Shown: piece after piece, positions 2,781 through 52,530 of the stretch
How positions within the stretch are numbered: position 1 is the stretch's first letter
How the letters are laid out: every line of letters starts with the position of its first letter
Virus record (IMG/VR): IMGVR_UViG_3300033512_000519
Span: 1 to 52,530 of that record
DNA length: 52,530 bases
Reading direction: 5' to 3' (one strand)
DNA from: a virus
Lineage: Duplodnaviria; Caudoviricetes
Made by a program: the position numbers and the translations under genes
Notes under the pieces: model-generated
What the model was told of the DNA's origin: nothing
The model's database searches: none
The model's input: only the letters and a program-made list of their open reading frames with translations

Positions 2781-2843
2781 TTTATTCTCTCCTTTAAGTT
2801 GTTATAGGGGTTTCCTATAAAGAACTAGTTATTGTTATTTACC

Positions 2844-3543: not shown

Positions 3544-3565
3544 TTTTTTATTTTCATTTTTCCAC

Positions 3566-3600
3566 AAAAAAAGCCTATCCAATTAAGGATAGGCTTTTTT
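3566..3600 (-). terminator. Bidirectional-type terminator after the protease/scaffold gene
   Basis: AAAAAAGCCTATCC-aattaa-GGATAGGCTTTTTT. Confidence 0.85.
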
Positions 3601-3617
3601 ATTGTTATATTGTTAGA

Positions 3618-9230: not shown

Positions 9231-9234
9231 AATC

Positions 9235-11596: not shown

Positions 11597-11614
11597 AATA
11601 TGTTAAGATATTTA

Positions 11615-11660
11615 ATAGCCGTTTATTCTAATATTTTCAATAGAATAAGCGGCTATCCCT
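11615..11660 (-). promoter_or_regulatory. 16-bp-arm inverted repeat overlapping an AGG-N19-GAAAATA promoter
   Basis: ATAGCCGTTTATTCTA (11615-30) / TAGAATAAGCGGCTAT (11641-56), one mismatch. Promoter 11632-11660. Confidence 0.6.
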
Positions 11661-11677
11661 CTTTATAAAATAATCTT

Positions 11678-13948: not shown

Positions 13949-13972
13949 AAATTACTCCAAATATTTAATCTC

Positions 13973-13980
13973 ATTATACA
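13973..13980 (-). promoter_or_regulatory. TGTATAAT promoter (-10 class) for portal
   Basis: Same octamer precedes several other genes. Confidence 0.6.
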
Positions 13981-14008
13981 ATATTATTGAGATTCTGTGT
14001 CTTTTATC

Positions 14009-15376: not shown

Positions 15377-15397
15377 CGCATCACTCCTTTTTTGAAT

Positions 15398-16396: not shown

Positions 16397-16498
16397 AAAT
16401 ATTTCCTTTTTTGTTTTGATTACTGCTCGAATCTGAATATATATTATTTCCTTCTAATATTATTTACATATGTCCTGCAAATATCCTTTTTTTAAAAA

Positions 16499-16533
16499 AT
16501 AAACCCGAACTTATTTAATTAAGAACGGGTTTA
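16499..16533 (-). terminator. Terminator after the AAA+ ATPase
   Basis: TAAACCCG...CGGGTTTA imperfect stem, followed by a T-rich tract on the minus strand. Confidence 0.6.
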
Positions 16534-16553
16534 CAAATATTTATGTAGTCTGA

Positions 16554-25966: not shown

Positions 25967-26890
25967 CTAAACCTCTAGAAAATCGTCGTCTTCTGTTTTC
26001 GGATCTATTTCTGATTTGTTGCTAATATCTGGAGAAGCTTCATGGTCTATGAAATCCTCCAAATCTTCAGCATCAACCTCATCATCAACAAATTTAACAG
26101 CCCTGTCCTTAATTTGAGAAGCCTCTGGAAGAACCGAACTCTGCATTGCGATTTTTAATAGCTTTTCACCAGAAGATACAATAGCAGAAAGTCCGTTTTG
26201 CTCAGATAAATCTAAATTTTTATCACAAAATTTAACGTCATTATCGATATCACTTTCTTCTGCCTCGATTCTTTTCATAGCTTCCAATGACGCTTTAGTC
26301 GCCTCGTTATCGTCGATTTCACCAGACGCACTTCTAGACATATTGCCGCCTTTTGCCCCTGATGTTGTCATAATTACAACTCTAGATTCAATATCATCAG
26401 TTGATTTTATTTCAGGATCGGAATTAGATAACTTTACAATCTTTTTAGGTTCGACTGCATTTGCATTTTCTCTTTCAATTGTTTTTCTGTTCTTAGCTCC
26501 TTTTGGTCTTCCTCTTCCTTTTGCAGAATCTTGTTCATTTTCTGGAATAGGCTTGGAAGGAGCGTCTTCGATATCGTTATCGTCATCTATTTTAGTAGCA
26601 ACTGGAGCTGAAGCAACTGGAGCTGAAACTAATTTAGACACAGATTGAAACTTTGAAATAACAGGAGTTGGAATTTCGTTAACTCCGCCTACTGTTTCAA
26701 CTTCAATAGAAATAAGACCAGCATTGACTAATGAATTAACTTCCGACAACTGATCTTCATTAACCACATCTATATGTCTCGCAATGCTTTCTTTATACAG
26801 GTGTGGATTTTTACTGTCTCCACGAATAACGATTCCTAATGAATTAAACGCAATTGTGGACGCAGTCATACCTTTAATAGTTAATCTCAT
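25967..26890 (-). CDS. Hypothetical protein with AT-hook
   Basis: KGRGRPKGAKN motif, acidic C-terminus, 15-bp tandem repeat (SAPVA x2), AAGGAGG RBS, TGTATAAT at 26914-26921. Confidence 0.7.
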   Translation of the reverse strand: MRLTIKGMTASTIAFNSLGIVIRGDSKNPHLYKESIARHIDVVNEDQLSEVNSLVNAGLISIEVETVGGVNEIPTPVISKFQSVSKLVSAPVASAPVATKIDDDNDIEDAPSKPIPENEQDSAKGRGRPKGAKNRKTIERENANAVEPKKIVKLSNSDPEIKSTDDIESRVVIMTTSGAKGGNMSRSASGEIDDNEATKASLEAMKRIEAEESDIDNDVKFCDKNLDLSEQNGLSAIVSSGEKLLKIAMQSSVLPEASQIKDRAVKFVDDEVDAEDLEDFIDHEASPDISNKSEIDPKTEDDDFLEV

Positions 26891-28422: not shown

Positions 28423-31400
28423 TTAAACCCATCCCGTCCTAACTAGAATTGGAGCTGGTAAAGCCATCCTTAATCCTTCGTTTGCCGCCCATGTAGCTCC
28501 CGCCAAACAATCGCTCAAATCGTCCAACCCAACATCGCCATTTTTATCAGGTAATATAGTATATCCTCTTTTTGTTTTCTTAAACTTAAGCTCTTTCAAT
28601 TCACCAAGCAATAAATTTGTCTCTGAACAATTATCATACAGTAATATTTCCGGCTCAGGCTGATACAGCATCATATTACGTAAATTCTGATACACTTTAC
28701 ATTTAACTCTATCATTAAACGCTATTTGGTGACAATTAATTCCATGTCCTCTTAACTTTTGTACACTATGAACTGAATGATAATCGTCATATGTTACGGA
28801 CATTGGGTGAAATCTTGCACAAATTTTTATCATTTCATTATCAATATCATCAAACAACAGTCCTAATCCGGGCATTGGCTTCCATAACCAAACACCAGCT
28901 AACGAGCATCTTATTCTTTTTTGACCCTGCGGAGTAACATATCTCTGCTTCGCAACCATAACTGCCGCATAATTATTGCTTTTCTTAGCTGGGTCAACGT
29001 GTATATAATAATTAGTGGCTGGCATTGGTCTGGTATGAGGTCCAATATCGAACTTCAAACATCTATCTACAGCCCCCTCTTCAAAATAATTACCATACGC
29101 ACCGCTAGTTGACCATTGTGCTCCAAATTCTATAGTAAACATTTCTGGATTTGCATTGCGTTCCTTCATCATTTCTGGATCTGAATAAGAAACGTCCAAA
29201 TTTATATCCCAAGTAGGCAATTGGAATGATATACATGAATCTGCAATTGATTTTTCACTCGACGTTGCCTCGTTAAAAGCATCATAAAAGGCTCCATTTC
29301 GACTATTTGGAGAAGATATCATCACTACCTTGCCAGCTTTATATTTATAAAACTTTGATAATGAGGGCTTTAAACGATTAACAAAATATTTCCCTGTTAC
29401 CTTTCCTGTTTCATCATAGAACGCAATTTCGTCAAAAAGCAACAAAATAGCACTATATCCAGCTAATGAGTCAGGATTACTATGTCCGCACAGCAGTAAA
29501 ATTGACCCCGGAATACTAAGATTTGCTCCAGACTGCTTCTTTTGTAAATCACGGTCTGTATATAACCTAACTGAATCGGCTGTTTCCTTTGCGACACGAT
29601 TTTGGAAGAATGGCGAGTTTCTTATTCTTGCCTGAACTTGACCGAACAGACGCCCCGCTTGTTTTTGAGACAAAGCGACGTTGATTATTGCTATTTCGTC
29701 ATCATCTGGCAAGTTGTAATATCTATGTGGATCTCCGTTGTTAATAACTAATAATTTATAAGCCTCGTAAGCAGTAATAATCGATGCCATGAAAGTATTA
29801 TGTGAAATTATATCTCCACCTATAATATGATGAGGATCAACTTGTAAATCAACGGTTTTCGTTATCCCAACATGAATAACTTCATCAACAGTATCCCATT
29901 TCAAATCAGACTTAGCGCTATTTACAATAAATTCATTTCCGTAATTTTCACCAATTTCAATCAATTTGTCACGATTAGCTGAATACTCTTGTCTTAAACG
30001 TCCACTGATTGTTGTCGTTAATGCATTAATGGAAATGTTTTTATCATTTGATTCTTTTTTCAAAGCGTTCCATATTCCATGGGGGATGTTGTCAAATGGA
30101 CTTTTAGGTTTTGATCTTAGTTGTGATATTTCAACCACTTGATTGACTATTTGCTCTTTGGAAAAAATATTGATTTCATCTCTGAATTTTTTTAAACAAT
30201 CTTTTCTAACAATCGACAATCTCCAACTATCTTTATATCCGTCTTGATATTTTGCTTTAGAATATCGAACTGTAGCATGTATACCAAATTTTAAAAGCAA
30301 ATGTCTTATATCCATAACCAATTGTTTTGATGCCAAAGTACATCCGATAAGCGTTTTTTTAATTTTGTGTTCAGAATCAAGAAAACTATCAACAGATCCC
30401 CATCCATCACATCCGAAAAAACGAGACAAAAATGCCGATACTTCCGCCTTGGAACCTTCAAGTATACATTGTGGAACCCTCTTGTCTACAGATTTTTTTC
30501 CATAAACGCCCTCTGCTTTTAACCACTCCTTGACTTCATTCTGCTGGCTTCCTTTTTGATTGAATCGTCCACTGTCTTTAACTACCACATAATCATAATT
30601 TTCACGATGATTTACTGAATATCCTATGAACTCCTCGTTTATTAATCTTTTAAAATCTTGCAACATGACATCTGAACCAGTTGAATAACCAATATGATGC
30701 GTAATACCTCCATCTCCTTGAAAATGTCCTAGTAAAGCCGCTCTATTAGATCCTACCCTACCACGACCAAATAATTCTGTTTTATCTGCAACTGCAATTT
30801 TGTCGCCAATTTTTATATCCTTTAATTTTAAGAATTTTGGTTCGTTAAAATCGTCTCTCCATACCAAATAAGGATGATTCCACGATGATGTCTCTTCGAT
30901 TCCCCTTGACGTTCTTAATGTATAGCATTCAACCGCTCCATTATCTTTAGCCTTAACGTCATATGTAACCGATCTTTTCCAAATAGTTGTGTCATACGTA
31001 CAAATCCCTATTTTCTCTCCAGCACTAAGCCTGTCGCATAAAGATCGAAAAGTTAAAGAACCTTCCGTTGTTGCTATTAAATCATCCTCGCTTCTGCATT
31101 TCGATCCACGTCTTCCGAGTACCAAAACTAATTGCGTAAATGGATTATATTTTGCAGCTTTCTCTTTTTCGTGCAATTTAGTAATAACATCTCTTAGATT
31201 TCGTTCATAGGTAATTCCATCTAATTCTATATTGTCTTGTCTCTCATATAGCCATTCCCATTCGGATTGCGATAATTTTAGATCTTCGTTACCGATAGTA
31301 CCTTTATAAAAAGCCTTTAATATAACTGATTGACCGGGATAAATCTTAAATTCAATTTCCTCCATATTGAATTCATCAGTCTCTTCTTCTTTCTTAGCAT

Positions 31401-31587
31401 TCTCTTTTGCGTTTCTGTCCTCGTCATATGGAATACCTAAAAACTTAGGGTCGCTACAAAACGTCATTATGTCAACTATATTGTAGCGATCATCGTTCTC
31501 AACAAGTTCAGGATTATCACATTCTATCTTCCTAAGAGCTTCAAATAACGGGTTTCTTTTTGTTTCTTCTGTTTTTATCTTAGGCAT
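28423..31587 (-). CDS. terL: Terminase large subunit containing an intein
   Basis: Walker A GRRGSK|T, Walker B LLLFDEIAF, ISSP coupling motif, nuclease HVDPA and DDLSD. Likely start MPKIK at 31587 after GGAGG. Confidence 0.92.
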   Translation of the reverse strand: MPKIKTEETKRNPLFEALRKIECDNPELVENDDRYNIVDIMTFCSDPKFLGIPYDEDRNAKENAKKEEETDEFNMEEIEFKIYPGQSVILKAFYKGTIGNEDLKLSQSEWEWLYERQDNIELDGITYERNLRDVITKLHEKEKAAKYNPFTQLVLVLGRRGSKCRSEDDLIATTEGSLTFRSLCDRLSAGEKIGICTYDTTIWKRSVTYDVKAKDNGAVECYTLRTSRGIEETSSWNHPYLVWRDDFNEPKFLKLKDIKIGDKIAVADKTELFGRGRVGSNRAALLGHFQGDGGITHHIGYSTGSDVMLQDFKRLINEEFIGYSVNHRENYDYVVVKDSGRFNQKGSQQNEVKEWLKAEGVYGKKSVDKRVPQCILEGSKAEVSAFLSRFFGCDGWGSVDSFLDSEHKIKKTLIGCTLASKQLVMDIRHLLLKFGIHATVRYSKAKYQDGYKDSWRLSIVRKDCLKKFRDEINIFSKEQIVNQVVEISQLRSKPKSPFDNIPHGIWNALKKESNDKNISINALTTTISGRLRQEYSANRDKLIEIGENYGNEFIVNSAKSDLKWDTVDEVIHVGITKTVDLQVDPHHIIGGDIISHNTFMASIITAYEAYKLLVINNGDPHRYYNLPDDDEIAIINVALSQKQAGRLFGQVQARIRNSPFFQNRVAKETADSVRLYTDRDLQKKQSGANLSIPGSILLLCGHSNPDSLAGYSAILLLFDEIAFYDETGKVTGKYFVNRLKPSLSKFYKYKAGKVVMISSPNSRNGAFYDAFNEATSSEKSIADSCISFQLPTWDINLDVSYSDPEMMKERNANPEMFTIEFGAQWSTSGAYGNYFEEGAVDRCLKFDIGPHTRPMPATNYYIHVDPAKKSNNYAAVMVAKQRYVTPQGQKRIRCSLAGVWLWKPMPGLGLLFDDIDNEMIKICARFHPMSVTYDDYHSVHSVQKLRGHGINCHQIAFNDRVKCKVYQNLRNMMLYQPEPEILLYDNCSETNLLLGELKELKFKKTKRGYTILPDKNGDVGLDDLSDCLAGATWAANEGLRMALPAPILVRTGWV
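29797..31098 (-). mobile_element. Intein with LAGLIDADG homing endonuclease (434 aa)
   Basis: Starts CRSEDD, block B SWNHPY, LLGHFQGDGG and FLSRFFGCDG motifs, ends IISHN, followed by Thr. Confidence 0.92.
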
Positions 31588-32446
31588 TTTGTTCCTCCAA
31601 GATATAAATACCGTTTGATTCATCAGTCATAATACCTTTTAATTTTTCACTTTCATATATCGAACCATTACTCAATTTATTATCACGAATAGAAAATGTA
31701 TAAATTCCATTGCTACACATAATATATAATATGTCTTTTTTGAACATCAGTTTTTTCGGCTCTATTAATATTTTTTCGGATGGATGACCTGCAATTATAG
31801 ATATACTGTTTTTATCAACCTTTCTAACTAATCCGCAAAATGAATCTGACATAAACACACTACCATTATATGTAACCATTCCCGATGGAATTCCAATAGA
31901 TGTGTTTTTTAATGTATCTCCAATAGAAAATCTACACTTTCCATCTCCAGTTATATGATAAAAAGCAGAGCTATGATAGAAAAACAACTTATGTAAATCA
32001 GGATAGGCAATAAAAAAATTCTCATTACCAGCTGGCGACAACAAAGCTTTTGAATCAAAAGGAACGTTTTTAAGCATTTGGGATACAGAAGATTTAATAA
32101 CACCTCTGAAACTATTACTGGTTTTATTATTTTTTATTTTAATTGTTCGAACATCTCTTCCGCCATCTTCACATATAAATATGGTTTTTGTACCGTGATT
32201 ATAACCTATTCCAGATAAACTGCCAAAAGTAGGGTTGTCTCCATTACGGATTTTCCCATCAGATCCCTTCCAAAAAGGATTGTTGACGCCTTTTTCGGTT
32301 AACAAACCCAATTTATTACCATGAGTATACACTATACCTAGATCGTTTACCCAACACGCATCTTGTATTTCGGTATCGGTTTCAATTGTTTTTATTAAAT
32401 CTATTTTTTTAGTACCGACTGTTTTTTTAGAAATATTATATTTCAT
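31580..32446 (-). CDS. NHL-like beta-propeller protein
   Basis: Repeated blades (PSGMVTYNGSVFMSDSFCGLVRKV, IFICEDGGRDVRTI). Confidence 0.65.
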   Translation of the reverse strand: MKYNISKKTVGTKKIDLIKTIETDTEIQDACWVNDLGIVYTHGNKLGLLTEKGVNNPFWKGSDGKIRNGDNPTFGSLSGIGYNHGTKTIFICEDGGRDVRTIKIKNNKTSNSFRGVIKSSVSQMLKNVPFDSKALLSPAGNENFFIAYPDLHKLFFYHSSAFYHITGDGKCRFSIGDTLKNTSIGIPSGMVTYNGSVFMSDSFCGLVRKVDKNSISIIAGHPSEKILIEPKKLMFKKDILYIMCSNGIYTFSIRDNKLSNGSIYESEKLKGIMTDESNGIYILEEQNA

Positions 32447-38529: not shown

Positions 38530-39330
38530 ATGTATTATAATTGGTATAAAGTAGCGAAGATGCAGCAAGAAGCTGGAATAAAAGATTATATTCCGGCTTC
38601 ATTAATGTCTGCTATCGTTTCAGTAATGAGTGGTTCCGCTATTTGGAATGCTGCTGAAAGATTTAAAGTTGACCCATCAGATATTGAAAACGCTTTGAAT
38701 AACCCTCAGCTTATACAATATGTACAAAATGATAAACCGAAATTAAATATGCAAAATTATCAATCAAACTTACAACCAAAACCAAACTTACAGCCAAAAC
38801 CAACGCTACAACCTAAACAAAACCTTACTAAAAACAAAACAACCCCTTTAGTTACTCAAGCTACTTTGACTACTGAATTGCTAAATAGCTTGAAAAAATT
38901 AGAAGGAACCCTTGAATATCAAAAATCTATTGGCAATTTCAGAGGTGGCAAATTTTATCCTTACAAAGATAAGAATGGGTTTTCAACAATTGGATACGGA
39001 CATAAAATAATCAATGGGGAAAACTTTGCAAAAGGTATAACTCCAGAAAAAGCAGATCAGTTATTGAAACAAGACGCTCAAAAATCAATAGATCAAACAA
39101 ATCGTTTAATTTCAACAATACCTGTAACTCCAGATGCTGCTCAAATTTTAGCTAATATGGTTTTTCAAATGGGTGAAATTGGTGTAACAAATTTTAGCGG
39201 TATGTTGAAATCTCTAAAAAACCAAGATTATCAAACTGCTGCTATAGAAATGTTAGATAGTAAATGGGCAAAACAAGATTCTCCAACTAGAGCAAAAGAG
39301 TTAGCAAGTCTTATGTCCAAACAAAAATAA
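38530..39330 (+). CDS. GH24/T4-like lysozyme with N-terminal NWYKxA leader and LQPKP repeat linker
   Basis: KKLEG...YPYKDKNGFSTIGYGH, NMVFQMG, EMLDSKWAKQ...RA. Confidence 0.88.
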   Translation: MYYNWYKVAKMQQEAGIKDYIPASLMSAIVSVMSGSAIWNAAERFKVDPSDIENALNNPQLIQYVQNDKPKLNMQNYQSNLQPKPNLQPKPTLQPKQNLTKNKTTPLVTQATLTTELLNSLKKLEGTLEYQKSIGNFRGGKFYPYKDKNGFSTIGYGHKIINGENFAKGITPEKADQLLKQDAQKSIDQTNRLISTIPVTPDAAQILANMVFQMGEIGVTNFSGMLKSLKNQDYQTAAIEMLDSKWAKQDSPTRAKELASLMSKQK

Positions 39331-41884: not shown

Positions 41885-42541
41885 ATGAGCAAAAAAAACT
41901 ACACGCATATTATATCATTAATAGATTGTTCTGGTTCAATGTCATCAATTAAGACAGATATGGAAGGTGGATTCGATGTCTTTATAAAAAAACAGCAAGA
42001 AGTTGAAGGGGAAGCAACGTCTACGCTAATTCAATTCGACGACGCATATGAAGTCTTACACGAAAACATTGCTATTAAACAAGTCCCTAAATTTAATCTA
42101 GTGCCAAGAGGAATGACAGCCCTATTGGATGCTATTGGAAAAACGCTGGAAAATGAACGAAAAAGAATTAAAGCTATGGATGAATCTGAGCAACCCGAAA
42201 AAGTTGTTTGTATTATAATTACAGATGGACACGAGAATGCTTCAAGAACGTATAATCGTGAACGTATATTTACTATGATTTCCGATTTAGAAGGACAAGA
42301 AGATCCTCAATGGGATTTTATATTCTTGGGAGCCAATCAAGACGCAATAAAGGAAAGTGCTAATTTAGGTATACGTGCTGGATCGACAATGACTTATGAT
42401 ACCAGCAGTATAGGAACACAATCTCTGTTTCACTCTCTAAGCGAGAATATGACGACCTATCGTTGCTGTTCGACAAAAAGCAAATATTCATTTTCTGAAG
42501 AGGATAAGGCTATACAAGAAGATTTACTCAGTAAAAAATAA
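41885..42541 (+). CDS. Stand-alone von Willebrand factor A domain protein
   Basis: MIDAS DCSGSM, GMTALLDAIG, ITDGHEN, FIFLGAN. Confidence 0.92.
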   Translation: MSKKNYTHIISLIDCSGSMSSIKTDMEGGFDVFIKKQQEVEGEATSTLIQFDDAYEVLHENIAIKQVPKFNLVPRGMTALLDAIGKTLENERKRIKAMDESEQPEKVVCIIITDGHENASRTYNRERIFTMISDLEGQEDPQWDFIFLGANQDAIKESANLGIRAGSTMTYDTSSIGTQSLFHSLSENMTTYRCCSTKSKYSFSEEDKAIQEDLLSKK

Positions 42542-42549
42542 TAAAAGTA

Positions 42550-43182
42550 CTAATATATGCTTATGAGGCGATAGTACATATTTGTAATGATATCGCCATC
42601 CCATATATTTGTTCCATTTACTGGTTGTATTTTTTGTGCCAAAGTCCATATACCGCTTGTAAGATTAGTGGTATATTGAATTTGAATATTCGTAATAGAT
42701 TGATGTGTATATTGGTGTTTCCATAATATTTTGCATGAATTGTTTGTCCTCTGCATTGAAGTTATTTTTAAAAATGACTCGTTGTTTTGCGGATTAGTGG
42801 CACTCCAAAACTCCTGTATATTGGAAAAGCCATCATAATCCCAATCATTTGTTACGATTAATTCAAAATTGCTATTAGTCCAGTTTGCTAACCATTCATA
42901 AGGAACGTTCCCTATAGTAGTGGTAATTGCACTAAAAGCGGCAGTTATAGAAATTGAATTTGTAACGCTCAATGTTATTTGGTTATTTAATATTGAAGCG
43001 TTATTCGTGTTTCCGTGCCATTGTGTGAACTTGCTATATTGTATTGGAGTAGCGATTATAGTTATATTTGTTCCAGCGGCATACCATCCACTATTGACAT
43101 TTAATGTTCCTCTTTGGGCATTTGAGCGTGTCGGGAAGATAATTAATATTAATATCGCCGCAACATAATGAATTATTTTCAT
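42550..43182 (-). CDS. Secreted protein: InlB B-repeat-like domain plus DxDxDG..N..E...TNP module
   Basis: Signal peptide ending SNA; GWYAAGTNITIIATP...FTQWHG; DWDYDGFSNIQEFWSATNP; YTTNLTSGIW...YYRL. Promoter 43189-43215. Confidence 0.75.
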   Translation of the reverse strand: MKIIHYVAAILILIIFPTRSNAQRGTLNVNSGWYAAGTNITIIATPIQYSKFTQWHGNTNNASILNNQITLSVTNSISITAAFSAITTTIGNVPYEWLANWTNSNFELIVTNDWDYDGFSNIQEFWSATNPQNNESFLKITSMQRTNNSCKILWKHQYTHQSITNIQIQYTTNLTSGIWTLAQKIQPVNGTNIWDGDIITNMYYRLISIY

Positions 43183-43390
43183 TATTTATTTTTCTTTTAC
43201 TAATCGCACAATCCTTTCTTTAATTGCTTTTTAGTCAACAACTAAAGAATATTTTATGTTACATAAATATAATAAATATTGATTGATTTACAATATATTA
43301 TGTTAAATACAAAAGGAATAAAAAGAAAAAACATAGAGTATTATTATGTCCACAATGTATTAAAAATAAAACAGTAAAGGAGATATAAAC

Positions 43391-43915
43391 GTGAAAAGTA
43401 AAAAAGTAATTAAAATCGAATGTATTATAAAAGTTTTAGCATCTTTGGTTATGATTTGCATTTTATCATGCAGTGGCTGTAAAACATTAGAGTATCTTGT
43501 GGATTTATTGCCTGAAAAAGAAGATGTTCAGCCACCACCGCCACCGCCTCAACCGCCTGTTATCGATGAAGCTGAAAAATACAAAGATGGACCAAGCACA
43601 ATATCTCATGGCAAATCTGGATTCTTGTGGAAACCAATTTCTGACAACACAGGTTTTCCAGTATTATTGCTTCCTCCAAGATTCACAAACAAAACACAGG
43701 CAGTTACTTGTAATGATATATTGATTTATTGCAGTGCTGTAGCGAACGGTTACAGAGGGCATTATAGATTAAATCAGCATTATACAGGAGCGTTAACTAT
43801 TAAAGCAGTTGCAACAGACGGAATCGGTGGAGCATCATATCTATGGACATGGATTATACCGGACGCAAGCCAGAGATATGATAGTAATGTAACGCCAACA
43901 ATTGAAAAACTATGA
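43391..43915 (+). CDS. Lipoprotein with poly-Pro linker
   Basis: Hydrophobic stretch plus LSCSGC lipobox; GFLWKPISD...VLLLP and ANGYRGHYR motifs; AAGGAG RBS. Confidence 0.75.
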   Translation: MKSKKVIKIECIIKVLASLVMICILSCSGCKTLEYLVDLLPEKEDVQPPPPPPQPPVIDEAEKYKDGPSTISHGKSGFLWKPISDNTGFPVLLLPPRFTNKTQAVTCNDILIYCSAVANGYRGHYRLNQHYTGALTIKAVATDGIGGASYLWTWIIPDASQRYDSNVTPTIEKL

Positions 43916-43926
43916 AAGAATACGTT

Positions 43927-44496
43927 TTAAATAAAATCTGTATTTATAACATCATTTGAATTTGGTAGTAATTTAACAGGGTTGCCTAATATTACATCAT
44001 AATGGGTCATGTGTTCTTTATCATTTTGTACTATTATGTTTCTACCTGTCACTTCCCTACCAAGTTTCCAATATTCAAAACAATTATCAAATCTTTCATC
44101 ATGCCCATCTATATGTTTGTTCTTCCAAAGAATGTGATGCCCCATCTCGTGATTCATAACTTGGTGTTGAGTTTGCCCTTGTGGACCTATCGCCGTAAAT
44201 ACTTTGCCATCAAGATTATATAGTCCTCTTACCCACATATTGTTTAACTCAGGAGCTTTCCATGCATATATGCCGTTGCCAAAATCAGCTTGGGCGGGTA
44301 TATCATAAGCTTTAACTATATAATCATCTAATTTCCAACCTGTTGCACTTTTAATTGATTTTTTAGCTTCGTCATAAGCTTTTATCCATTTTTTTTCTGT
44401 TTTTGAAGGTGCTTTAACTACAGATTCACCTCCATCTGCAAACATATTGATGAATAATTGTCCTAATCCTGCTGGTAATGTATAAAGAAAATTCAT
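43927..44496 (-). CDS. Zinc metallopeptidase-like protein
   Basis: NHEMGHHIL...GHD (HExxH plus a downstream His). Confidence 0.7.
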   Translation of the reverse strand: MNFLYTLPAGLGQLFINMFADGGESVVKAPSKTEKKWIKAYDEAKKSIKSATGWKLDDYIVKAYDIPAQADFGNGIYAWKAPELNNMWVRGLYNLDGKVFTAIGPQGQTQHQVMNHEMGHHILWKNKHIDGHDERFDNCFEYWKLGREVTGRNIIVQNDKEHMTHYDVILGNPVKLLPNSNDVINTDFI

Positions 44497-44990
44497 GATT
44501 GTTCCTCTTTGTTAAATATTGACGATATGTTTTGCCATAATTTACCAAAAAGTCTAACTCCTTTGTAATATAATCCAGACAAACAGAAATTAAATTGAAT
44601 CAATATATGGTAAAATATTAAGTCTGCAAATTTTCTGACAATTTTTGAATTAAGATTGGTGATCTTGCTTATTTCATATAAAAATTGATACAGGAAATCA
44701 TGAACAATGGTAGCAACTGTAGTATCTCTCATATGTTCACTTTGCTCTTGAAGAATCGGCATATTGGCTATTGGGTAATCCTTTTGCTCTATTTCTTTAC
44801 CCTGCCATACATGTCCACTAGCACCATTCCATGCATAATTTTTATATATAATTATTTTATCTGAATATATTTCTCCCCATTCTGTTTTTATACATACATT
44901 ATCCGTATTTATAAATAATGGTGAAAAATCATAAAAATATGTGTAATTTTCTTTAAGGTAATATCTATATTTTGATTTTTTGGCAGTCAT
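44493..44990 (-). CDS. DUF1353-like protein
   Basis: YAWNGAS, ATIVHDFLYQ, RKFADLIF, YKGVRLFG. Confidence 0.8.
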   Translation of the reverse strand: MTAKKSKYRYYLKENYTYFYDFSPLFINTDNVCIKTEWGEIYSDKIIIYKNYAWNGASGHVWQGKEIEQKDYPIANMPILQEQSEHMRDTTVATIVHDFLYQFLYEISKITNLNSKIVRKFADLIFYHILIQFNFCLSGLYYKGVRLFGKLWQNISSIFNKEEQS

Positions 44991-45113
44991 GCGTATTAAT
45001 TCTGATATATTTGTTAAAAACCTTTTGGTAAAATAATAAAAAGAAAAAGGATCAACAACTTTTATAATGGAATGATAATAAAAACAATTATCTTGAAAAT
45101 AAAGGAGAAAAAA

Positions 45114-48100
45114 ATGATATATTGTAAATATGCGGTGATGTTTCTGATGTGGCTATTTGTCTCTAACATTGCTTTTGCAGCTACTTATATAAATGGAAAA
45201 GAAGTTATAGAGGCATATAGTGTAACAACAGAAACAGTTGTAACAGATACAATTACTGTTGATGGACAAATAATTGATGCTGGTACAGTTAGTAGTTGGA
45301 ATGCATGTATTACTAATCTGTCTGAATTAGAAATAAGTCTGGCTGATACAACATTAGGTAGCGAAGGAATTAGATTAATTGGAGCTTTTTGTGGTTATAC
45401 GCTTGAAGAATTCTTTGAAGATACCTATTTGTCTGGACCAAGCAGAGATAAACCAACATGGACTTATTCAATGTATCCTGTTGCTAATTTAAACATATCA
45501 TACACGGATGGAGATGTATATTCGCCTTCACATGGATATTTTAAACTTATAGATGGAACGAAAACATTAACTGATAATGCAAACAACTTCGCTTACTGGA
45601 GCACAAATACACCTACTATAATTCAATGGGCTGCCTCTCGTCCCACAGGCGATTCTATTATATTGGCTCGTTTTACTACTGCAATGGGATCAATCATATC
45701 CGTTGATGAAACTCGTGCAATTGGTGAAGCCACATTAGATATGTTGGTTGCAAATGCCGATATAATTCCTAGTTTAGTTATTACTCCATCAGGAATCTTA
45801 GCCTATTCAACTGGAACAGCTCTTTCAAATGTGGCTATGACGGCAGGCTTTGAGTATCAAGATATGATTAATAAAATGGAACATTATAATCAAAATCTAT
45901 CTGATACGAACATTACAACACGATTATTAGCATATAGCAAGACAAACGGTAATTATATAGTAACATATACCAATATAGTCCCTGTTGGATATTGGGGTGA
46001 TGGAACAAATGTAGTAGCTTGTGACACTAATTTATGGTATAGAGGTTTATTTTTATCAAAAGCTACGAATAGAGAAATGCATTGGGTTTACCCGCAAGCT
46101 TCATATACTAGTGAGGTAGATGCAATTAATGGAACTGATCCCGTTAAGCCTACTGGTTTTGAGCCATATGTAATTTCTTCTACAGCATATATTTTCAAGG
46201 GCAACGAAACAGAACTAAGCCTAGATACAGCCAGATGGATTGACCGTAGAACTATGATACGTTCAGGCTCAAGCACAGGCGGTGGTGGCGGTGGCGGACC
46301 AACTTCAATTCCTGCACTTAGTCAGGTTATGGCGGCAGGTAGTTCTTTAGGTGGAATATTGCCTCATGACGCTCCACTCCCTACTGATCCTGATGAATTA
46401 GCAAGTAAAGAATATGTAGATTCTACGGTTAATAATATAAATTCGGGCAAAGCATATGTTGATACTAACGGAGACGACTTAACGGCACAGGTTGGGAGTT
46501 CGATTAATCCTTTCAAAACAATTCAAGCTGCTATTGATGCATGTGCTGCTGTGGCTACAGATAATAATCGATATGTTGTGAGCGTCAGTCCCGGTCATTA
46601 TAATGAAAATTTAACTATGAAGAATTATATTAGTCTTCAAGGCATTGATATTGAAGCAACGATAATTCATGGTTATATAACGTTTCCGTCTAGTTATACA
46701 GATATTACTGGTACTGGAATTCAATTATTTACGGTTGTTACTGAAAATTCACCAGTTATTACATTTAACTTAGGTGCTGACGACGCATATGCCGGAATAA
46801 GATCATGTTATCTTATATCAAATTATGACGATAATAGTATAACAAATAAAAGTCTCATAGTTGCTAATAGAGGACTGGTTGAAATATATGGGACTACTTA
46901 TAATGAATTGAATGTAAATGGGACAAACACAGAAACATTTATTGGTAATGAACAAATATATGAACACTTTGCCAATCCCTCCAATGATGGATTATCTCAA
47001 CTTATTGCATATTCTGCCTCTAGTATTATTACATCTAAAAACACCAGAGATAATGTTTCAATATTCTATAATCACAATAATTTAGATACTAGATGTTTCA
47101 ATATTGTACAAGCTGGCGTTGATAGAATATTTCTCGACAATACTGACGAACATAGTAACACTGTAAGTCTCGTAAGAGCTATTAATTCTAAAGGGGTTAC
47201 TTTATGTCAAGGTAAAATGACGAAATTAGAATTACCTAGTACTAATAGCGTAAAGATTGTTTTGGGATATATCGCCAATAGTGTTGATAAAGGTTTAATT
47301 ACACTAAAAGACAATAATATAAGAGTTATCTGTGACGAAGTACTTGAAAATGTATTTTTTGGTTCAGCTACGTCAACTAATGACAATATAAAGATAATCA
47401 ACACGACAATAATAACAGGTATAGACCCAATTGAAATTAATTATCCTGAAAGATATATCGATGATGGTTCAGATGGCAATTATGATATCAATACTACTTG
47501 TGAGAATGGAGACACTATTCTCGGTGGACCTATAGATATGTCAGACGCAAATAGAACATCTGTTCTTACGCCATCCACAGGACATTTAAAAGTATTCCAG
47601 TCCCCTTATGCGGGTCTTGAAAACCTAATGCTGAAAGATTCTTCTGGTAATGTAATTAGATTGGCAAGAGATAATTTTTATAACGGTTACAACGGTGACG
47701 TATCGGCTCTTGCAGTCGGTGAAGCTGTTTATTTCGCACCGGGTATTTCTCCTGATAATACCCCAATAGTAAAACGATGTATTGCCAGTGATATCTCTAC
47801 GATGCCGTGTATTGGTCTTGTTTCACAAATAGGAGGTATTGCTACCGGATCTATTGGTAGAATAATGTTAATTGGACGATTAGAAAACCCATGTAACACA
47901 GCTTCATTCTCTCCCGGCGATAAATTATATGTTAGTGCAACTATCGCTGGTGGGATTACAAACGTTGCGCCGACAGGTACTAATATTGTACAAGTCATCG
48001 GGAATTGTCATATATCTTCAACGAATGGATATATCAATGTTCGTCCGTGGAGACCTGATACTCTTGGTGGGTTAACTGCTGAATCATATGCTCTTGCTAC

Positions 48101-48413
48101 AAATATTAATGTTTCGTTTAAAACAACTTATGAATTAGTAAGTTCTCCTACTGTAACTGTAACAAGAGCGATGGGAAATGAGTTAAGTCTTTTTATGACA
48201 AATAATGTAGAACTAACATATAGTCAGGCTGATTTTCCGACTAATGGAGTTTCTAGGTTTGGAGTGTCATTATATAAAGGAGCGTTTACTTTAACAATAA
48301 ATACTAATTTAATTGATTCTGTTTCATTTGGAGCCTTGACGCTTAGCACAACAAATTGGAATTACATTGTTATTAATAAAGGATTTGGGCAAACCAAGGC
48401 GGAGGTAAGATAG
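45114..48413 (+). CDS. Tail fibre/spike-like protein with an N-terminal signal peptide
   Basis: Start at 45114 after AAGGAG. MIYCKYAVMFLMWLFVSNIAFA signal; LSQVMAAG; LASKEYVD; GSSINPFKTIQAAID beta-helix entry; GEAVYF...IGLV...GDKLYVS fibre domain. Confidence 0.75.
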   Translation: MIYCKYAVMFLMWLFVSNIAFAATYINGKEVIEAYSVTTETVVTDTITVDGQIIDAGTVSSWNACITNLSELEISLADTTLGSEGIRLIGAFCGYTLEEFFEDTYLSGPSRDKPTWTYSMYPVANLNISYTDGDVYSPSHGYFKLIDGTKTLTDNANNFAYWSTNTPTIIQWAASRPTGDSIILARFTTAMGSIISVDETRAIGEATLDMLVANADIIPSLVITPSGILAYSTGTALSNVAMTAGFEYQDMINKMEHYNQNLSDTNITTRLLAYSKTNGNYIVTYTNIVPVGYWGDGTNVVACDTNLWYRGLFLSKATNREMHWVYPQASYTSEVDAINGTDPVKPTGFEPYVISSTAYIFKGNETELSLDTARWIDRRTMIRSGSSTGGGGGGGPTSIPALSQVMAAGSSLGGILPHDAPLPTDPDELASKEYVDSTVNNINSGKAYVDTNGDDLTAQVGSSINPFKTIQAAIDACAAVATDNNRYVVSVSPGHYNENLTMKNYISLQGIDIEATIIHGYITFPSSYTDITGTGIQLFTVVTENSPVITFNLGADDAYAGIRSCYLISNYDDNSITNKSLIVANRGLVEIYGTTYNELNVNGTNTETFIGNEQIYEHFANPSNDGLSQLIAYSASSIITSKNTRDNVSIFYNHNNLDTRCFNIVQAGVDRIFLDNTDEHSNTVSLVRAINSKGVTLCQGKMTKLELPSTNSVKIVLGYIANSVDKGLITLKDNNIRVICDEVLENVFFGSATSTNDNIKIINTTIITGIDPIEINYPERYIDDGSDGNYDINTTCENGDTILGGPIDMSDANRTSVLTPSTGHLKVFQSPYAGLENLMLKDSSGNVIRLARDNFYNGYNGDVSALAVGEAVYFAPGISPDNTPIVKRCIASDISTMPCIGLVSQIGGIATGSIGRIMLIGRLENPCNTASFSPGDKLYVSATIAGGITNVAPTGTNIVQVIGNCHISSTNGYINVRPWRPDTLGGLTAESYALATNINVSFKTTYELVSSPTVTVTRAMGNELSLFMTNNVELTYSQADFPTNGVSRFGVSLYKGAFTLTINTNLIDSVSFGALTLSTTNWNYIVINKGFGQTKAEVR

Positions 48414-50404
48414 TGCGAAAATATTTAATATTTATTTTAGCTATAATTTTTTGTTCCAGTATTGCAAAATCTGATTCTTTAATGGCTTTATGGTATGAAA
48501 GAGCATTGATTGTAAACGATGGAACTTGGATAGGAACATCAGGGAATTGGAGCGATACAACAAAATGGACAAATGGAGTAGTTGCAAGTGGAGTTGATAA
48601 AATTGCCACTCTTGGTAATTATATAACAAGTTCCTGTACGGTAACATTGGATGTTTCTCGTACTGTAGGTAATATTTATGCATTAGATACAACTCATAAT
48701 TACACTATCGGAGACTCAAACACGATTACAACTATTACTATGGATCGCACTAGTGGTACTCCTGTTATCTCTGTTGTGGCTAATAGAACTCTTACTATCA
48801 ATTCTATAGTTGCTGGAAATGATGGATTTAGTAAGCAAGGCGTTGGAATTTTAGCTTTGACAGCAACCAACACATACAGCGGTGATACTACATTGCTTGC
48901 GGGGATGCTGAATACTTATCAAGGATTCCACTTCGGATCAAGTACAAATCTATTGGTGACAGGCACAGCTATATGGAGGGCTGGAGAGGGAGTGTCGGCA
49001 ACATATAATATTGGTATTAATATAGCGGAAACGGCTAATCTTCAACTTCAAAGTGGAAACGCTGTCAAAATAATAACAGGAGTTCTTTCGGGGTCTGGCT
49101 CAATGACTAACGTCACTACTACCGGATTCACATTTTCCAACACGAACAATACGTTTACAGGTATACTATATAACGGGTATCAGATGACCCTTAGCAGCCT
49201 TGGCGATTCTACTAATGCCGTGAATCTTAATGGAAGTAACAGCCAATTCATATGGGCTGGTACAAACATGACTTTTGCGTTGCGAAAGTTTACGCTTAAT
49301 CAGCCGCTTGCAGCATCGAACTCCGGTAAGATTCACTCCAACGGAACAGGACCAATTTTTATTAGTCAACCTCTCTCTATTACTGGTACTGCTGGTGCGA
49401 GAACACTTGAATTAGGCGGTAGCAATACGAGTTCTAATACATTTGCAGGAGCGATTTCAAATGGAGTCGGTTCAGTGGTAAGTTTAACTAAATCAGGAAA
49501 TGGATATTGGTACTTGCGTGGTACGAATACATATAGCGGCAATACTACATTTATTCAAGGACTTGGAAGAGTTATATTCCAAGGTACTCAATCAATATCT
49601 CCATCTACGACATTTGACTTACGGCAAATGTCTACACCATCATTTCAATTCTATATTCTTGACGATGGCGTAGGAACTATAAACTTTGGGAATAACATTG
49701 AATTCGTTACTGTTAACAGTATTATGAAAGGCACAATAGTGATAGGCAACAATAATATTAGCAATGGAGGATTCAGCGAAGGGACAACTACGGGATCAAA
49801 AATGGTATTTGGAAATGTTACATTTTCTCCTCAGAACGCAATTCCATCTGGTCCCGCATCAATTAGTTCTCCGGATGGGTACAGTATCCAATTTAGCAAC
49901 CTCATTTTTGGAGCAACTCCCGCAGTTTCCATATGGTCGCCATCGTTGGGGAATGGTAACGCAGATATAACTATTACAGGTACGATACAGCAGAACAGCG
50001 GACAGTCTGTTGGGAATAGGCGAATAATTTATATATTGAGCGGAACTAGCACTAATAATCTAATATCTGGAAATATTTTAAACGCTTCAGACTATCCTGC
50101 AAATACAAATACGGCTCCGCTAGGAATTACAAAACAAGGATCAGGAACTTGGACACTATCCGGCACAAATACATTTAGCGGAACAAACACAATTAGCGTA
50201 GGTAAATTAATTATGCAAGGTGCTTCGGCGGTATCAACTTCTTCTCCTATAAGTATTGCTACGGCAGCTAGAATTGAATTGAATTATAGTGGAGGCGTAA
50301 CAATACCATCATTAATCAGCAATAACGTAGCTATGGCGTCAGGAGCATACAGTATAACAAACATGAGTCAGATTTTAGGAACAGGATATTTAATAGTCCC
50401 GTAA
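48413..50404 (+). CDS. Secreted autotransporter-associated beta-strand repeat (PATR) protein without a beta-barrel
   Basis: Signal peptide MRKYLIFILAIIFCSSIAKS. Three (L/I/F)xKxGxGxxxLxxTNT(Y/F)SGxxT repeats. Confidence 0.8.
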   Translation: MRKYLIFILAIIFCSSIAKSDSLMALWYERALIVNDGTWIGTSGNWSDTTKWTNGVVASGVDKIATLGNYITSSCTVTLDVSRTVGNIYALDTTHNYTIGDSNTITTITMDRTSGTPVISVVANRTLTINSIVAGNDGFSKQGVGILALTATNTYSGDTTLLAGMLNTYQGFHFGSSTNLLVTGTAIWRAGEGVSATYNIGINIAETANLQLQSGNAVKIITGVLSGSGSMTNVTTTGFTFSNTNNTFTGILYNGYQMTLSSLGDSTNAVNLNGSNSQFIWAGTNMTFALRKFTLNQPLAASNSGKIHSNGTGPIFISQPLSITGTAGARTLELGGSNTSSNTFAGAISNGVGSVVSLTKSGNGYWYLRGTNTYSGNTTFIQGLGRVIFQGTQSISPSTTFDLRQMSTPSFQFYILDDGVGTINFGNNIEFVTVNSIMKGTIVIGNNNISNGGFSEGTTTGSKMVFGNVTFSPQNAIPSGPASISSPDGYSIQFSNLIFGATPAVSIWSPSLGNGNADITITGTIQQNSGQSVGNRRIIYILSGTSTNNLISGNILNASDYPANTNTAPLGITKQGSGTWTLSGTNTFSGTNTISVGKLIMQGASAVSTSSPISIATAARIELNYSGGVTIPSLISNNVAMASGAYSITNMSQILGTGYLIVP

Positions 50405-50422
50405 TACCATAAAGGAGATAAG

Positions 50423-50902
50423 ATGAATTATTGCAATATAATAACTAAAATAGAATCAGATGAACTTCCAACCAAGTATGGATATATTCATGCTGGCAAT
50501 TGGGAAAACGCAAAAGACCTTCATAAAGAAAATGGATGGAGATTATTAATTCCATCTGACCCAATTCAAGAAGGATATACTGTTACTGATATTTCATATA
50601 TAGATAATGGAGATACAGCAACAAAAGTCGTCACTACCAAATTAACCGCCGAAATAGAAGCTGAAGCGATGACCCAAAATCTAATTAAATATGGTCAAAA
50701 AATTGGGACATTTGGTGCTTTACTTGGTGTTTTTGGATTATCCTTCCCTACAACTCAAGAAGAAGCCTCGCCTGTTATATATGCAGCATTAAAAGCAAAT
50801 CCTAACCTTGCCGCCGACAGTCTTTTGTTATTAACTGTTTATCAGGATCTTTTAACAGAATTAACCGACGCCCAAATGTATGAAATAAGTAAATATCTGT
50901 AG
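50423..50902 (+). CDS. Possible tail-fibre-associated/chaperone protein
   Basis: ENGWRLL...GYTV pattern and position after fibre genes. AAGGAG RBS. Confidence 0.55.
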   Translation: MNYCNIITKIESDELPTKYGYIHAGNWENAKDLHKENGWRLLIPSDPIQEGYTVTDISYIDNGDTATKVVTTKLTAEIEAEAMTQNLIKYGQKIGTFGALLGVFGLSFPTTQEEASPVIYAALKANPNLAADSLLLLTVYQDLLTELTDAQMYEISKYL

Positions 50903-50976
50903 TTTAAAAAGGATATTTTACGATTGATATTGAAATAGTATTTGAAAAAGATTTTTAAAACGAACAAGGAGAGCGT

Positions 50977-51720
50977 ATGGCTATAGTATATTACCCAAAT
51001 AGAGTTTATAAAAAAAATTCTTCGCCGATTGATGTCTTGATGAAAGAACCGCAGATTATTTCAGTCAAAAAACGTCAAGATATTTCGTCAACGGCAATGG
51101 ATGAAATTATTTACAGGAACAATGATTGGACACAGAATTCATTAAGGTTTAATTTTAGCAACGCAACTGCAAGAAATTATTCAGCGAAAATATTAACTGG
51201 AACAAACGTCATACAAAACCTAAATGATTATTTTTGGATGGAATATTCTGAGGTTGGAAAACAAAAAATAACATTAGACTCTGGATTTTATAATAGCGGA
51301 ACAACCCTATCCGCAGAAATAAAAAGCAAATTAGACAATAATGCTGCATTTTTGGCGGCTGGAGCTGTCTTTACTGTAACTTACTCGGTAACAACTGGAT
51401 TATTTTCAATAACTGTTAATACTGGAACTATTAGATATTTAAATGTTAATCTATCACAAACAGTAAGTAACAGAGATAGTATTGGTGGACATTTATTTGG
51501 ATTTAATAGCGATTCTGCTTTAGCGAGTACAATAACCAGCGATACAGCGGTATTTGGTCTTGGCGACGAGGTTGCTTTCATTAACCAGACTAACGAAACA
51601 GCATTAGAACATTTGTTTGATGATGTTAAATATTTCAACGTTGATCAAGCTTTACATATTGCTGCGAACGTTGCTGGAGTCGCTATAAGTTTTGAAGTAA
51701 ATTCTCGGGACATAAACTAA
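50977..51720 (+). CDS. Putative virion structural protein
   Basis: Beta-rich; ITLDSGFY...LSAEIKSKL...FTVTYS...TGLFSI. Promoter AGG-N19-GAAATA at 50910-50937. Confidence 0.6.
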   Translation: MAIVYYPNRVYKKNSSPIDVLMKEPQIISVKKRQDISSTAMDEIIYRNNDWTQNSLRFNFSNATARNYSAKILTGTNVIQNLNDYFWMEYSEVGKQKITLDSGFYNSGTTLSAEIKSKLDNNAAFLAAGAVFTVTYSVTTGLFSITVNTGTIRYLNVNLSQTVSNRDSIGGHLFGFNSDSALASTITSDTAVFGLGDEVAFINQTNETALEHLFDDVKYFNVDQALHIAANVAGVAISFEVNSRDIN

Positions 51721-51777
51721 AATATTTATTCTGATTATATATACTTTTGTATAATTAAAAAAACAAAAGGAGAAATT

Positions 51778-52347
51778 ATGTCAGCAGAACCTACCCCAAT
51801 GGAAAAAAACAGAATTGTATTTTTAAGCGGAGCTTTTAACGAAGATAAGTCGAAAGAAATCATAAACAATATTCTTAATCTTGAAACAAAAGATCCAACT
51901 TCAGATATTCTTCTTATCATTGATTCTTACGGCGGATATGTGCATAGCTTAATGGCAATCCATGACGTTATTAAACACGTTTGCCGATGCGATATTGTTA
52001 CCTTGGGAATAGGTAAACAAATGAGCTGTGGACAAATGCTTTTAATGTCCGGAACAAAAGGAAAAAGATTTGTTACGCCAAACTCAAGGGTTTTAATTCA
52101 TCAATTAAGTAGCGTAACATTTGGTAAACTTTCTGAAATGGAAGTAGACATTAATGAAAGTAAGGCTTTGCAAAAAATGCTAGACGATCTTATTGTAAAG
52201 TATACAAATATAACTCGAAAACAACTTCCAGAAATAATGAGCAAGGATTCATTCTTTTCAGCTGAAGAAGCGGTTAAACTTGGTATTGTAGACGGTATAG
52301 TCAATAGCCCAAGAGATTTATATAAGAATCCAAAAATAAAGCTGTAA
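51778..52347 (+). CDS. clpP: ClpP protease proteolytic subunit
   Basis: RIVFLSG, IDSYGG, catalytic Ser (QMSCG), His (LIHQ), Asp (KDSFFSAEEA). TGTATAAT at 51748-51755. Confidence 0.92.
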   Translation: MSAEPTPMEKNRIVFLSGAFNEDKSKEIINNILNLETKDPTSDILLIIDSYGGYVHSLMAIHDVIKHVCRCDIVTLGIGKQMSCGQMLLMSGTKGKRFVTPNSRVLIHQLSSVTFGKLSEMEVDINESKALQKMLDDLIVKYTNITRKQLPEIMSKDSFFSAEEAVKLGIVDGIVNSPRDLYKNPKIKL

Positions 52348-52530
52348 TCTTATCTATTAATGAACAAGCAACTCTTGATTATTAATGTTTTTATTTTTTG
52401 GTGAGCAGAAAACCCAAACATCTTCAGTGTTTGGGATGAATGCGAACGAAGTAAATATTTAAATGTAATTTTTTCACAATATTTTGTATAATATATTTAA
52501 GCTCTTTGAAAAAGTGATTATGGTTCTGAA

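Follow-up and report, generated by a model that had tools for sequence, protein, structure and literature searches.

In the textbook account, tailed phages are assembled wholly in the cytoplasm. The question raised by positions 45,114–50,902 of the viral contig IMGVR_UViG_3300033512_000519 is what a fibre-like protein with a secretion signal does in a tailed phage. The 52,530-base contig, which is the whole record and is referred to here as the window, encodes at this locus a fibre-like protein (P0001), a coupled beta-helix protein of the PATR family (P0002) and a small leaderless protein (P0003; coordinates in Table 1). A sequence-only reading of the locus had suggested that the exported proteins either fold in the periplasm and join virions at lysis, or are displayed as fibres or adhesins on the infected cell. 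Export of P0001 and P0002 by the Sec system was strongly supported by the predicted leaders of both proteins. What is new here is an apparent receptor-binding protein (RBP) with a conserved secretion leader in a huge phage resembling phage G, together with an anchorless PATR partner of apparent host descent.

The N-terminus of P0001, MIYCKY-AVMFLMWLFVSNIAFA followed by ATYING, had the three parts of a classic signal peptide cleaved after AFA, as the sequence-only reading had described it: a charged n-region (K5), a hydrophobic h-region (AVMFLMWLFVSNIAFA, with a mean Kyte–Doolittle value of 2.63 across 10 residues) and A-F-A at positions −3 to −1. An alternative longer open reading frame (ORF) of P0001, starting from 45072, was without a Shine–Dalgarno site. 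P0002 began with MRKYLIFILAIIFCSSIAKS followed by DSLMAL, with R2 and K3 ahead of the h-region YLIFILAIIFCSSIA and A-K-S before the predicted cleavage site. Neither leader contained a clean lipobox. Leaders were called with a fixed rule (a hydrophobic 10-mer with a mean of ≥2.0 that begins no later than residue 25, preceded by Lys or Arg and followed by small residues, with ≤1 acidic residue). By this rule, 5 of the 39 ORFs in the window were leader-like. Four of these were found together at 42.5–50.4 kb, and among the 35 ORFs outside this gene cluster a single borderline one was flagged (25967–26890). Since four of the five leader-like ORFs lie together, P0001 appears to be one of four clustered genes for exported proteins, and the predicted leaders of P0001 and P0002 exceed what is expected by chance.

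The hydrophobic N-terminal segment was retained by the homologs of P0001. A word-indexed search yielded 20 family proteins including P0001 (39–86% identity over 82–100% of the query), 19 of which had leader-like N-termini ending in AFA, SIA, ATA, VFA, VDA, AFG and similar motifs; the twentieth, P0010, starts within the conserved core. The leader segments were 10–16 residues long and followed Lys or Arg, with small residues at −3 and −1 in nearly all members. Because the leader sequences were mutually unrelated, it is the shape of the leader and not its sequence that persists. A profile search with the N-domain of P0001 against 1.84 billion representatives returned 307 proteins at E ≤ 0.001, and leaders were counted among the best 150 of these 307, comprising 34 close (E ≤ 6e-54) and 116 more distant representatives. 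The fixed rule passed 25 of the 34 close representatives, and four more were leader-like by eye (P0117, P0005, P0120 and P0132). Three were N-terminally truncated (P0010, P0134 and P0135) and two were unclear (P0129 and P0133). Rule and eye together thus gave leader-like sequences for 29 of the 31 intact N-termini. Fewer of the more distant representatives passed the rule (31 of 116), and most of the others started like ordinary cytoplasmic fibre proteins. By these counts, nearly all members of the P0001 subfamily have a predicted leader, compared with about one in four in the wider N-domain family.

An AlphaFold model of P0001, built from the 20-sequence alignment, had a mean predicted local distance difference test (pLDDT) score of 69.5; the N-domain folded alone from 14 sequences scored 74.8. 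The conserved family core spanned residues ~76–990; members varied in the C-terminal extension and in the first 50–150 residues past the leader. In a comparison of the N-domain against 48,161 PDB representatives, made without Foldseek, 39 chains were listed, and the top 13 for the shoulder were baseplate or fibre chains of phages, type VI secretion or contractile-injection systems. The cyanophage A-1(L) fibre (8kec_A) had the highest Z-score (8.5, 26% identity), followed by the RBPs of lactococcal phage p2 (2wzp_A, 7.8) and phage 1358 (4l92_A, 7.5), the HFTV1 tail fibre (9h5b_BG, 7.3), SPP1 gp22 (2xc8_A, 7.0), the HFTV1 baseplate (6.8), Mtd (1yu0_A, 6.4) and TssK (6n38_A, 6.1). Ranks 9–13 were baseplate chains with Z-scores of 3.1–4.8, and unrelated chains scored ≤3.0. 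Residues ~99–208 of P0001 superposed on the shoulder domains of p2 (2wzp), 1358 (4l92), A-1(L) (8kec), HFTV1 (9h5b) and TssK, with 89–104 residues aligned, and we take this part to correspond to the domain that docks such proteins on the baseplate, as in p2 and TssK. Unlike them, P0001 has a leader and ~75 variable residues ahead of the domain, and we know of no description of a secretion leader in any of these proteins. Among the viral models of BFVD, 33 matched the N-domain at E ≤ 1e-3, including Mtd-N and S74 fibre proteins, and 260 matched the whole P0001 model, with names such as Mtd-N-domain, S74 and tail-fibre-like.

The beta-helix of P0001 (residues 445–820) reached Z-scores of 20–24.5 with tailspikes, including CBA120 TSP2 (6w4q), Sf6 (2vbk) and Fri1 gp49 (6c72), and was equally like the secreted pneumococcal adhesin PfbA (3zpp), alginate lyases of family PL6 and pectin methylesterases; the likeness was also seen by Foldseek. 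Since the helix matched virion spikes and secreted enzymes alike, the fold alone does not tell these apart. No catalytic residues were identified in the helix. The Pfam search of P0001 (E ≤ 0.01) gave a Pectinesterase match below the family cut-off (E 0.0088, 15.3 bits against a cut-off of 27) and no match to Caudo_bapla_N (PF20747), a family that was an Atlas lead for P0001 at 0.78–0.82, as a lead only. A PDB profile search gave a single weak match (1xg2_A, E 0.09). With tblastn against 50,697 phage records, matches were confined to residues 899–978, within the beta domain, where P0001 was 43% identical to gp44 of phage phiAC-1, which adjoins the major head gene, and 54% identical to a protein of a P22-like phage that lies between tail genes. 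In the models, P0001 is built like a receptor-binding protein, because it joins a shoulder domain, a tailspike-type helix and a beta domain common to phage structural proteins. The fibre likeness read from the sequence was thus borne out at the level of the fold, with structural matches to fibre, tailspike and baseplate proteins. The motifs LSQVxxxG and ASKEYVD, on which that likeness had been based, were conserved within the family (K432, Y434, V435 and D436 were invariant), but found no support as general fibre hallmarks, the matches in phage records being restricted to the beta domain.

P0002 was confirmed as a coupled PATR protein with a signal peptide and without an autotransporter barrel. 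Its GTG start codon is preceded by GGAGG at a distance of 7 nt and shares one base with the TAG stop codon of P0001. The only Pfam family matched was PATR (PF12951; 1.1e-16, 61 bits against a cut-off of 27, in three stretches), and the protein ends 60 residues past the last repeat. As PATR is the sole Pfam family, a type V autotransporter barrel is absent. The 94 listed relatives were PATR proteins, many of them named autotransporter-associated beta strand proteins and some with PF07589 (PEP-CTERM), and across most of P0002 the identity to Planctomycetota–Verrucomicrobiota–Chlamydiota (PVC) surface proteins was 33–42%. In species genomes, the ten top-listed loci with relatives belonged to Phycisphaerae, Akkermansiaceae, Verrucomicrobiota, Victivallales, Kuenenia, Pirellulales and Luteolibacter, all of which are PVC bacteria; the E-value of locus L046, from an uncultured bacterium, was among the lowest. 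P0002 had no match in the 50,697 phage records.

P0002 was aligned with its phage relative P0023, from metagenomic locus L016, and with 10 other sequences. The C-termini of seven of the 12 sequences, all among the 10 others, consisted of VPEP or IPEP followed by a hydrophobic stretch and a cluster of Arg residues. In P0002 and P0023, the sequence breaks off at ...TGYLIVP, aligned to the first two residues of VPEP, and a C-terminal PEP-CTERM/exosortase anchor is not present in P0002. Since P0002 stops at the start of the anchor with only 18 nt to the next gene, the anchor seems to be absent by design rather than through a recent break. P0002 resembles the PEP-CTERM PATR surface proteins of Verrucomicrobiota, Planctomycetota and Lentisphaerota in its leader and PATR repeats; unlike them, it is anchorless, encoded by a phage and coupled to a fibre gene. 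These similarities are best explained by descent of P0002 from host PEP-CTERM PATR surface proteins, minus the anchor.

The gene order P0001–P0002–P0003 and the one-base overlap were kept in L016, where the leader of the P0002 homolog ends in IVFA ahead of DSLMALWYER. Identities between the window and L016 were 79% for P0001, 81% for P0003, 50% for a 247-residue protein downstream and 44% for P0002, and the P0002 homolog of L016 has a repeat insertion of ~240 residues. On sequence comparison, this divergence of P0002 is what a specificity determinant would be expected to show. A PATR partner was seen in one clade only, the one in which P0001 has a short unique tail (residues 986–1099); in its place, other family members have 200–700 different residues, many ending in a shared ...NNWW.G domain. 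The tail may therefore be the part of P0001 that docks P0002.

The window is phage DNA, and the absence of terminal repeats from the contig indicates a genome fragment. The major head protein shared 55% identity with gp27 of Bacillus phage G, with other very large phages giving the next matches, and further phage-type genes encoded a ribonucleotide reductase, ClpP and a lysozyme. A search for tRNA genes across the window was negative, and no integrase or lysogeny genes were among the families matched in its 52.5 kb. The phage that encodes P0001 is best explained as a huge phage related to phage G. A PVC-type diderm with an exosortase system is its probable host, since the top-listed relatives of P0002 in species genomes come from PVC bacteria.

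Judged by its gene context, the P0001 family is phage-borne. A pattern scan with one genome per species (185,579 species of bacteria and archaea) gave 35 pattern matches and no P0001 relative, an absence that two short motifs leave unproven. IMG/VR contained one full-length relative, on a 125-kb viral contig (L001), and relatives were found at 18 metagenomic loci. At two of these (L027, at 1304–18395, and L028), the family member directly follows genes for a T4-type Gp20 portal, an S77 prohead protease and a Gp23 capsid protein, and is followed by several glycosyltransferases and DUF7487 proteins. Since relatives of P0001 stand beside T4-type head genes, the family appears to cross phage lineages. 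The company of exported proteins differed among loci. In L017 (234–12897), the P0001 homolog stands in a run of seven consecutive leader-like ORFs, including a protein with Gly_rich_2 and Laminin_G_3 domains, an RCC1 beta-propeller protein and a 974-residue protein without a family. The latter was considered as a P0002 homolog and rejected (no blastp match at 1e-5, no Pfam family). In L024, the P0001 relative is one of three leader-like ORFs, and in L001, L021, L027/L028 and L030 it is the sole credible one in the vicinity; a second flagged ORF in L027/L028 is borderline and encodes a Peptidase_S77 prohead protease.

All of these observations are compatible with periplasmic folding and late joining to the particle, a reading that we favour tentatively, at somewhat less than even confidence: both proteins would be exported and would fold in the periplasm, gaining access to the particle only after a breach of the inner membrane. 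P0001 would be synthesised as a Sec preprotein, from which signal peptidase I would remove the leader (residues 1–22) after AFA. The mature protein would then fold in the periplasm into, from N to C, shoulder, neck, beta-helix, beta domain and a small clade-specific tail. P0002, made by coupling from the P0001 message, would take the same export route as a fast-evolving specificity part and bind to P0001. The two proteins would meet and attach to the cytoplasmic tail only upon opening of the inner membrane by the holin, or following lysis. In principle, fibres can attach once the cell has lysed, as in the classical in-vitro complementation of T4.

Leader-like proteins in particle preparations have a cultured precedent, by analogy, in Cellulophaga phage phi18:3 (NC_021794.1). 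Like P0001, its gp085, gp086 and gp087 are large and have leader-like N-termini, for example MKKTIYILSILLLTISGVSA followed by Q; in the record, they are entered as structural or tail proteins on the basis of tandem mass spectrometry, and none of the nine other structural proteins identified in this way was leader-like. Unlike the window phage, phi18:3 is a 71-kb podovirus with a Bacteroidota host, and the likeness drawn here is that of the leader-like N-termini. With respect to the earlier suggestion, export was upheld by the leaders kept across the family, and the data did not decide between late joining and display on the cell. Display on the infected cell was less well supported than late joining, since P0002 has neither a barrel nor a PEP-CTERM anchor and neither leader has a clean lipobox.

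Several points weigh against the late-joining reading and the inferences on which it draws. The leaders were called with a fixed rule and inspection by eye, not with SignalP, and the evidence for the P0001 family comes from genes and models, none of it from virions. The Z-scores of 6–8.5 for the shoulder are within the range that the comparison tool flags for common arrangements. Ten Cys columns are partly conserved in the family with no pair co-occurring cleanly, and in the absence of co-varying pairs disulfide bonding supplies no reason for folding in the periplasm. The P0001 and P0002 genes are ~31 kb from the portal gene and on the opposite strand, and the flanking small exported proteins and the lipoprotein-like gene suggest an envelope-directed island. 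The N-domain is 40–49% identical between phages whose head genes differ in type (G-like or T4-like), and an adaptor specific to the baseplate of one lineage would seldom be conserved in this way. Phage G, which by capsid is the closest cultured phage, had no N-domain match at E ≤ 0.01, and the host assignment rests on the kin of a single gene (P0002).

The strongest alternative is that the exported proteins are never part of the virion and that P0001, derived from an RBP, acts with P0002 on the envelope or slime layer of the infected cell, which we regard as a serious though less than evenly likely possibility. The proteins could cut or mask a receptor glycan or protein, blocking superinfection and preventing the sticking of progeny to debris, or could loosen a PEP-CTERM-associated matrix for release. 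Exported phage proteins that exclude superinfection exist, namely Llp of phage T5 and Sp of phage T4. The four leader-bearing genes of the cluster are of mixed type, and the InlB-repeat and lipoprotein-like proteins among them do not resemble virion parts. The run of exported-type proteins in L017, with its propeller and lectin domains, points the same way, as do the spread of the N-domain across phage lineages, the glycosyltransferase genes that adjoin the P0001 family in L016 and L027, and the match of the beta-helix to secreted lyases, esterases and PfbA as well as to tailspikes. As a copy of a host surface protein without its anchor, P0002 could compete with the host's own proteins. According to a preprint, huge phages encode leader-bearing envelope proteins, namely sortase B substrates and outer-membrane proteins (bioRxiv 10.64898/2026.10.24.761521), and these differ from P0001 and P0002 in carrying anchors, either a cell-wall sorting signal (CWSS) or a beta-barrel.

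Action on the envelope accounts less readily for other features of P0001. It is not obvious what a shoulder domain for baseplate docking would do away from the particle, and a protein of 1100–1770 residues kept at ≥40% identity over 900 residues across lineages would be costly for an accessory role. Use after lysis needs no leader, whereas use at the cell surface before lysis needs an outer-membrane route, which both proteins lack. No catalytic residues were identified in the beta-helix, moreover, and its Pectinesterase match stayed under the cut-off. Late joining is slightly preferred over envelope action because of the shoulder domain and the modular pattern of divergence.

We consider it unlikely that the hydrophobic segment at the N-terminus stays uncleaved, serving as a membrane tether or as an assembly helix in a fibre built in the cytoplasm as usual. 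The leader calls come from a fixed rule and inspection by eye, residues 2–17 of P0001 were modelled as a helix, and ~70% of the wider domain family is without such a segment, so this type of protein does not need it. The segment length of 10–16 residues after Lys or Arg and the small residues at −3 and −1 (AFA, VFA, ATA, VDA, AFG) argue against a tether, and a type II anchor in that orientation would still place the protein outside the cytoplasm; the coupled P0002, moreover, comes from a family of bona fide exported proteins. It is equally improbable that the two genes are host-benefit cargo ("morons"), adhesins of a temperate or long-dwelling huge phage that give the infected cell new adhesion, as P0002 is host-like and sortase B display of phage proteins on host surfaces is proposed in the preprint (bioRxiv 10.64898/2026.10.24.761521), whereas lysogeny genes were not seen in the window, both proteins are without an anchor or surface-translocation signal, and the two-motif scan found no P0001 family member in bacterial genomes.

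A conserved leader on RBP-like proteins with a baseplate-docking domain would mean either that some of the virion is matured outside the cytoplasm and added late, or that phages have repeatedly converted host-recognition proteins into secreted tools acting on the surface of the infected cell. Either outcome alters how fibre genes in metagenomes are read, with respect to host-range prediction, depolymerase mining and superinfection exclusion. In its broadest form, the late-joining reading would give tailed phages an extracytoplasmic branch of assembly, in which a Sec-secreted class of RBPs matures in the periplasm and loads on finished tails after holin action, here with a swappable tip taken from host PEP-CTERM proteins; this generalisation is possible but is held with less confidence than the reading of the locus itself. 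The P0001 family offers test material in its leader of fixed shape, predicted mature N-termini and coupled, anchorless partner of apparent host origin, and the hundreds of P0001 relatives with and without leaders allow comparison. A full-text literature search, judged by titles and abstract openings, found no paper on exported tail fibres or PEP-CTERM phage proteins, and the main text of the preprint on huge-phage envelope proteins (bioRxiv 10.64898/2026.10.24.761521) was without the terms "tail fib", "autotransporter", "adhesin" and "beta-helix".

Table 1. Features of the P0001 locus and of other parts of the window.
Feature	Position	Strand	Remarks
P0001 gene	45114-48413	+	1099 aa, ATG start
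Shine–Dalgarno AGGAG	45103-45107	+	6 nt before P0001 ATG
TATAAT hexamer	45063-45068	+	51 nt upstream of P0001 start, possible -10 element
Predicted Sec/signal peptidase I signal peptide of P0001	45114-45179	+	residues 1-22, cleavage between AFA and ATY
P0001 conserved N-terminal region	45411-46253	+	residues 100-380, shoulder plus second beta subdomain, confidently modelled
P0001 "shoulder" domain	45408-45737	+	residues ~99-208, resembles baseplate-docking N-domains of phage receptor-binding proteins and TssK
P0001 Gly-rich linker/neck	46254-46442	+	residues 381-443, contains PALSQV and ASKEYVD, low confidence as monomer
P0001 right-handed parallel beta-helix	46446-47573	+	residues 445-820, tailspike/pectate-lyase-like, pLDDT ~90
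P0001 beta domain	47661-48068	+	residues 850-985, GDKLYVS region, common to proteins in other phages' structural modules
P0001 clade-specific C-terminal region	48069-48410	+	residues 986-1099, low-confidence model
Translational coupling of P0001 and P0002	48401-48415	+	GGAGG (48401-48405), P0001 TAG shares one base with P0002 GTG
P0002 gene	48413-50404	+	663 aa, PATR beta-helix protein, GTG start
Predicted signal peptide of P0002	48413-48472	+	residues 1-20, cleavage between AKS and DSL
P0003 gene	50423-50902	+	159 aa, leaderless, 81% identity in L016, conserved with module
247-aa protein	50977-51720	+	leaderless, recurring family neighbour, upstream and divergent in L016 and L024
218-aa protein	41885-42541	+	DCSGS motif resembling vWA MIDAS site, phrog_7371 (3.3e-62), adjoins exported-protein cluster
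210-aa exported-type protein	42550-43182	-	leader ending RSNA before Q, divergent InlB B-repeat domain (PF18998, 1.4e-09)
174-aa protein	43391-43915	+	lipoprotein-like leader (ILSC / SGC), proline run
189-aa protein	43927-44496 or 44493-44990 (pair)	-	leaderless, HEMGH (HExxH) motif, weak SprT-like match (E 0.036), one of the two genes directly upstream of P0001
DUF1353 / phrog_1158 "tail assembly chaperone" protein	43927-44496 or 44493-44990 (pair)	-	leaderless, the other of the two genes directly upstream of P0001
Major head protein	1914-2780	-	phrog_2522, 2.7e-72
1870-aa protein	3618-9230	-	first ~220 residues match head-maturation-protease families phrog_18299 and phrog_2774, remainder without family

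The genes that follow P0002 gave few leads. P0003 carries no leader, as the sequence-only reading had stated, but the description of it as chaperone-like found no backing: P0003 had no match in Pfam (even at E ≤ 10), PHROGs or the phage collection, its two relatives were unannotated, and the Atlas leads DUF4376 and Caudo_TAP_N were weak (0.82–0.84, below 0.9). The 247-residue protein downstream likewise had no match in Pfam (even at E ≤ 10), PHROGs or the phage collection.

The late-type promoter that had been placed before P0001 was not recovered. A scan of 42000–52530 for sigma-70-type promoters gave 48 sites against 50.1 expected, with 3 terminator-like sites against 5.2 expected, and the T4-type late motif TATAAATA was found in none of the 39 upstream regions. 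A TGTATAAT motif, resembling an extended −10 element, was present upstream of the genes at 724, 11678, 16554, 25967, 32436, 37790, 39670 and 51778, often just past a GC-rich hairpin with a T-run, and is probably the main promoter type of the phage. Since the TATAAT hexamer upstream of P0001 resembles this motif, which precedes eight genes of mixed function, nothing marks it as late.

Other proteins of the window and of the related loci had unusual domain compositions. The lysozyme (38530–39330, + strand; PF00959 at residues 137–262) has a weakly hydrophobic stretch rich in Ala, Ser and Gly at residues ~21–39 (IPASLMSAIVSVMSGSAIW), and its N-terminus could be of the signal-anchor-release type. 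In L017, a caspase-domain protein is encoded downstream of the run of leader-like ORFs. The portal protein of the window (11678–13948, − strand) has a C-terminal DUF559/HNH-like endonuclease domain, and a 1066-residue protein (28423–31623, − strand) contains an intein with a LAGLIDADG endonuclease. Inteins were also present in the portal protein of L001 and in a GT4 glycosyltransferase of L016.

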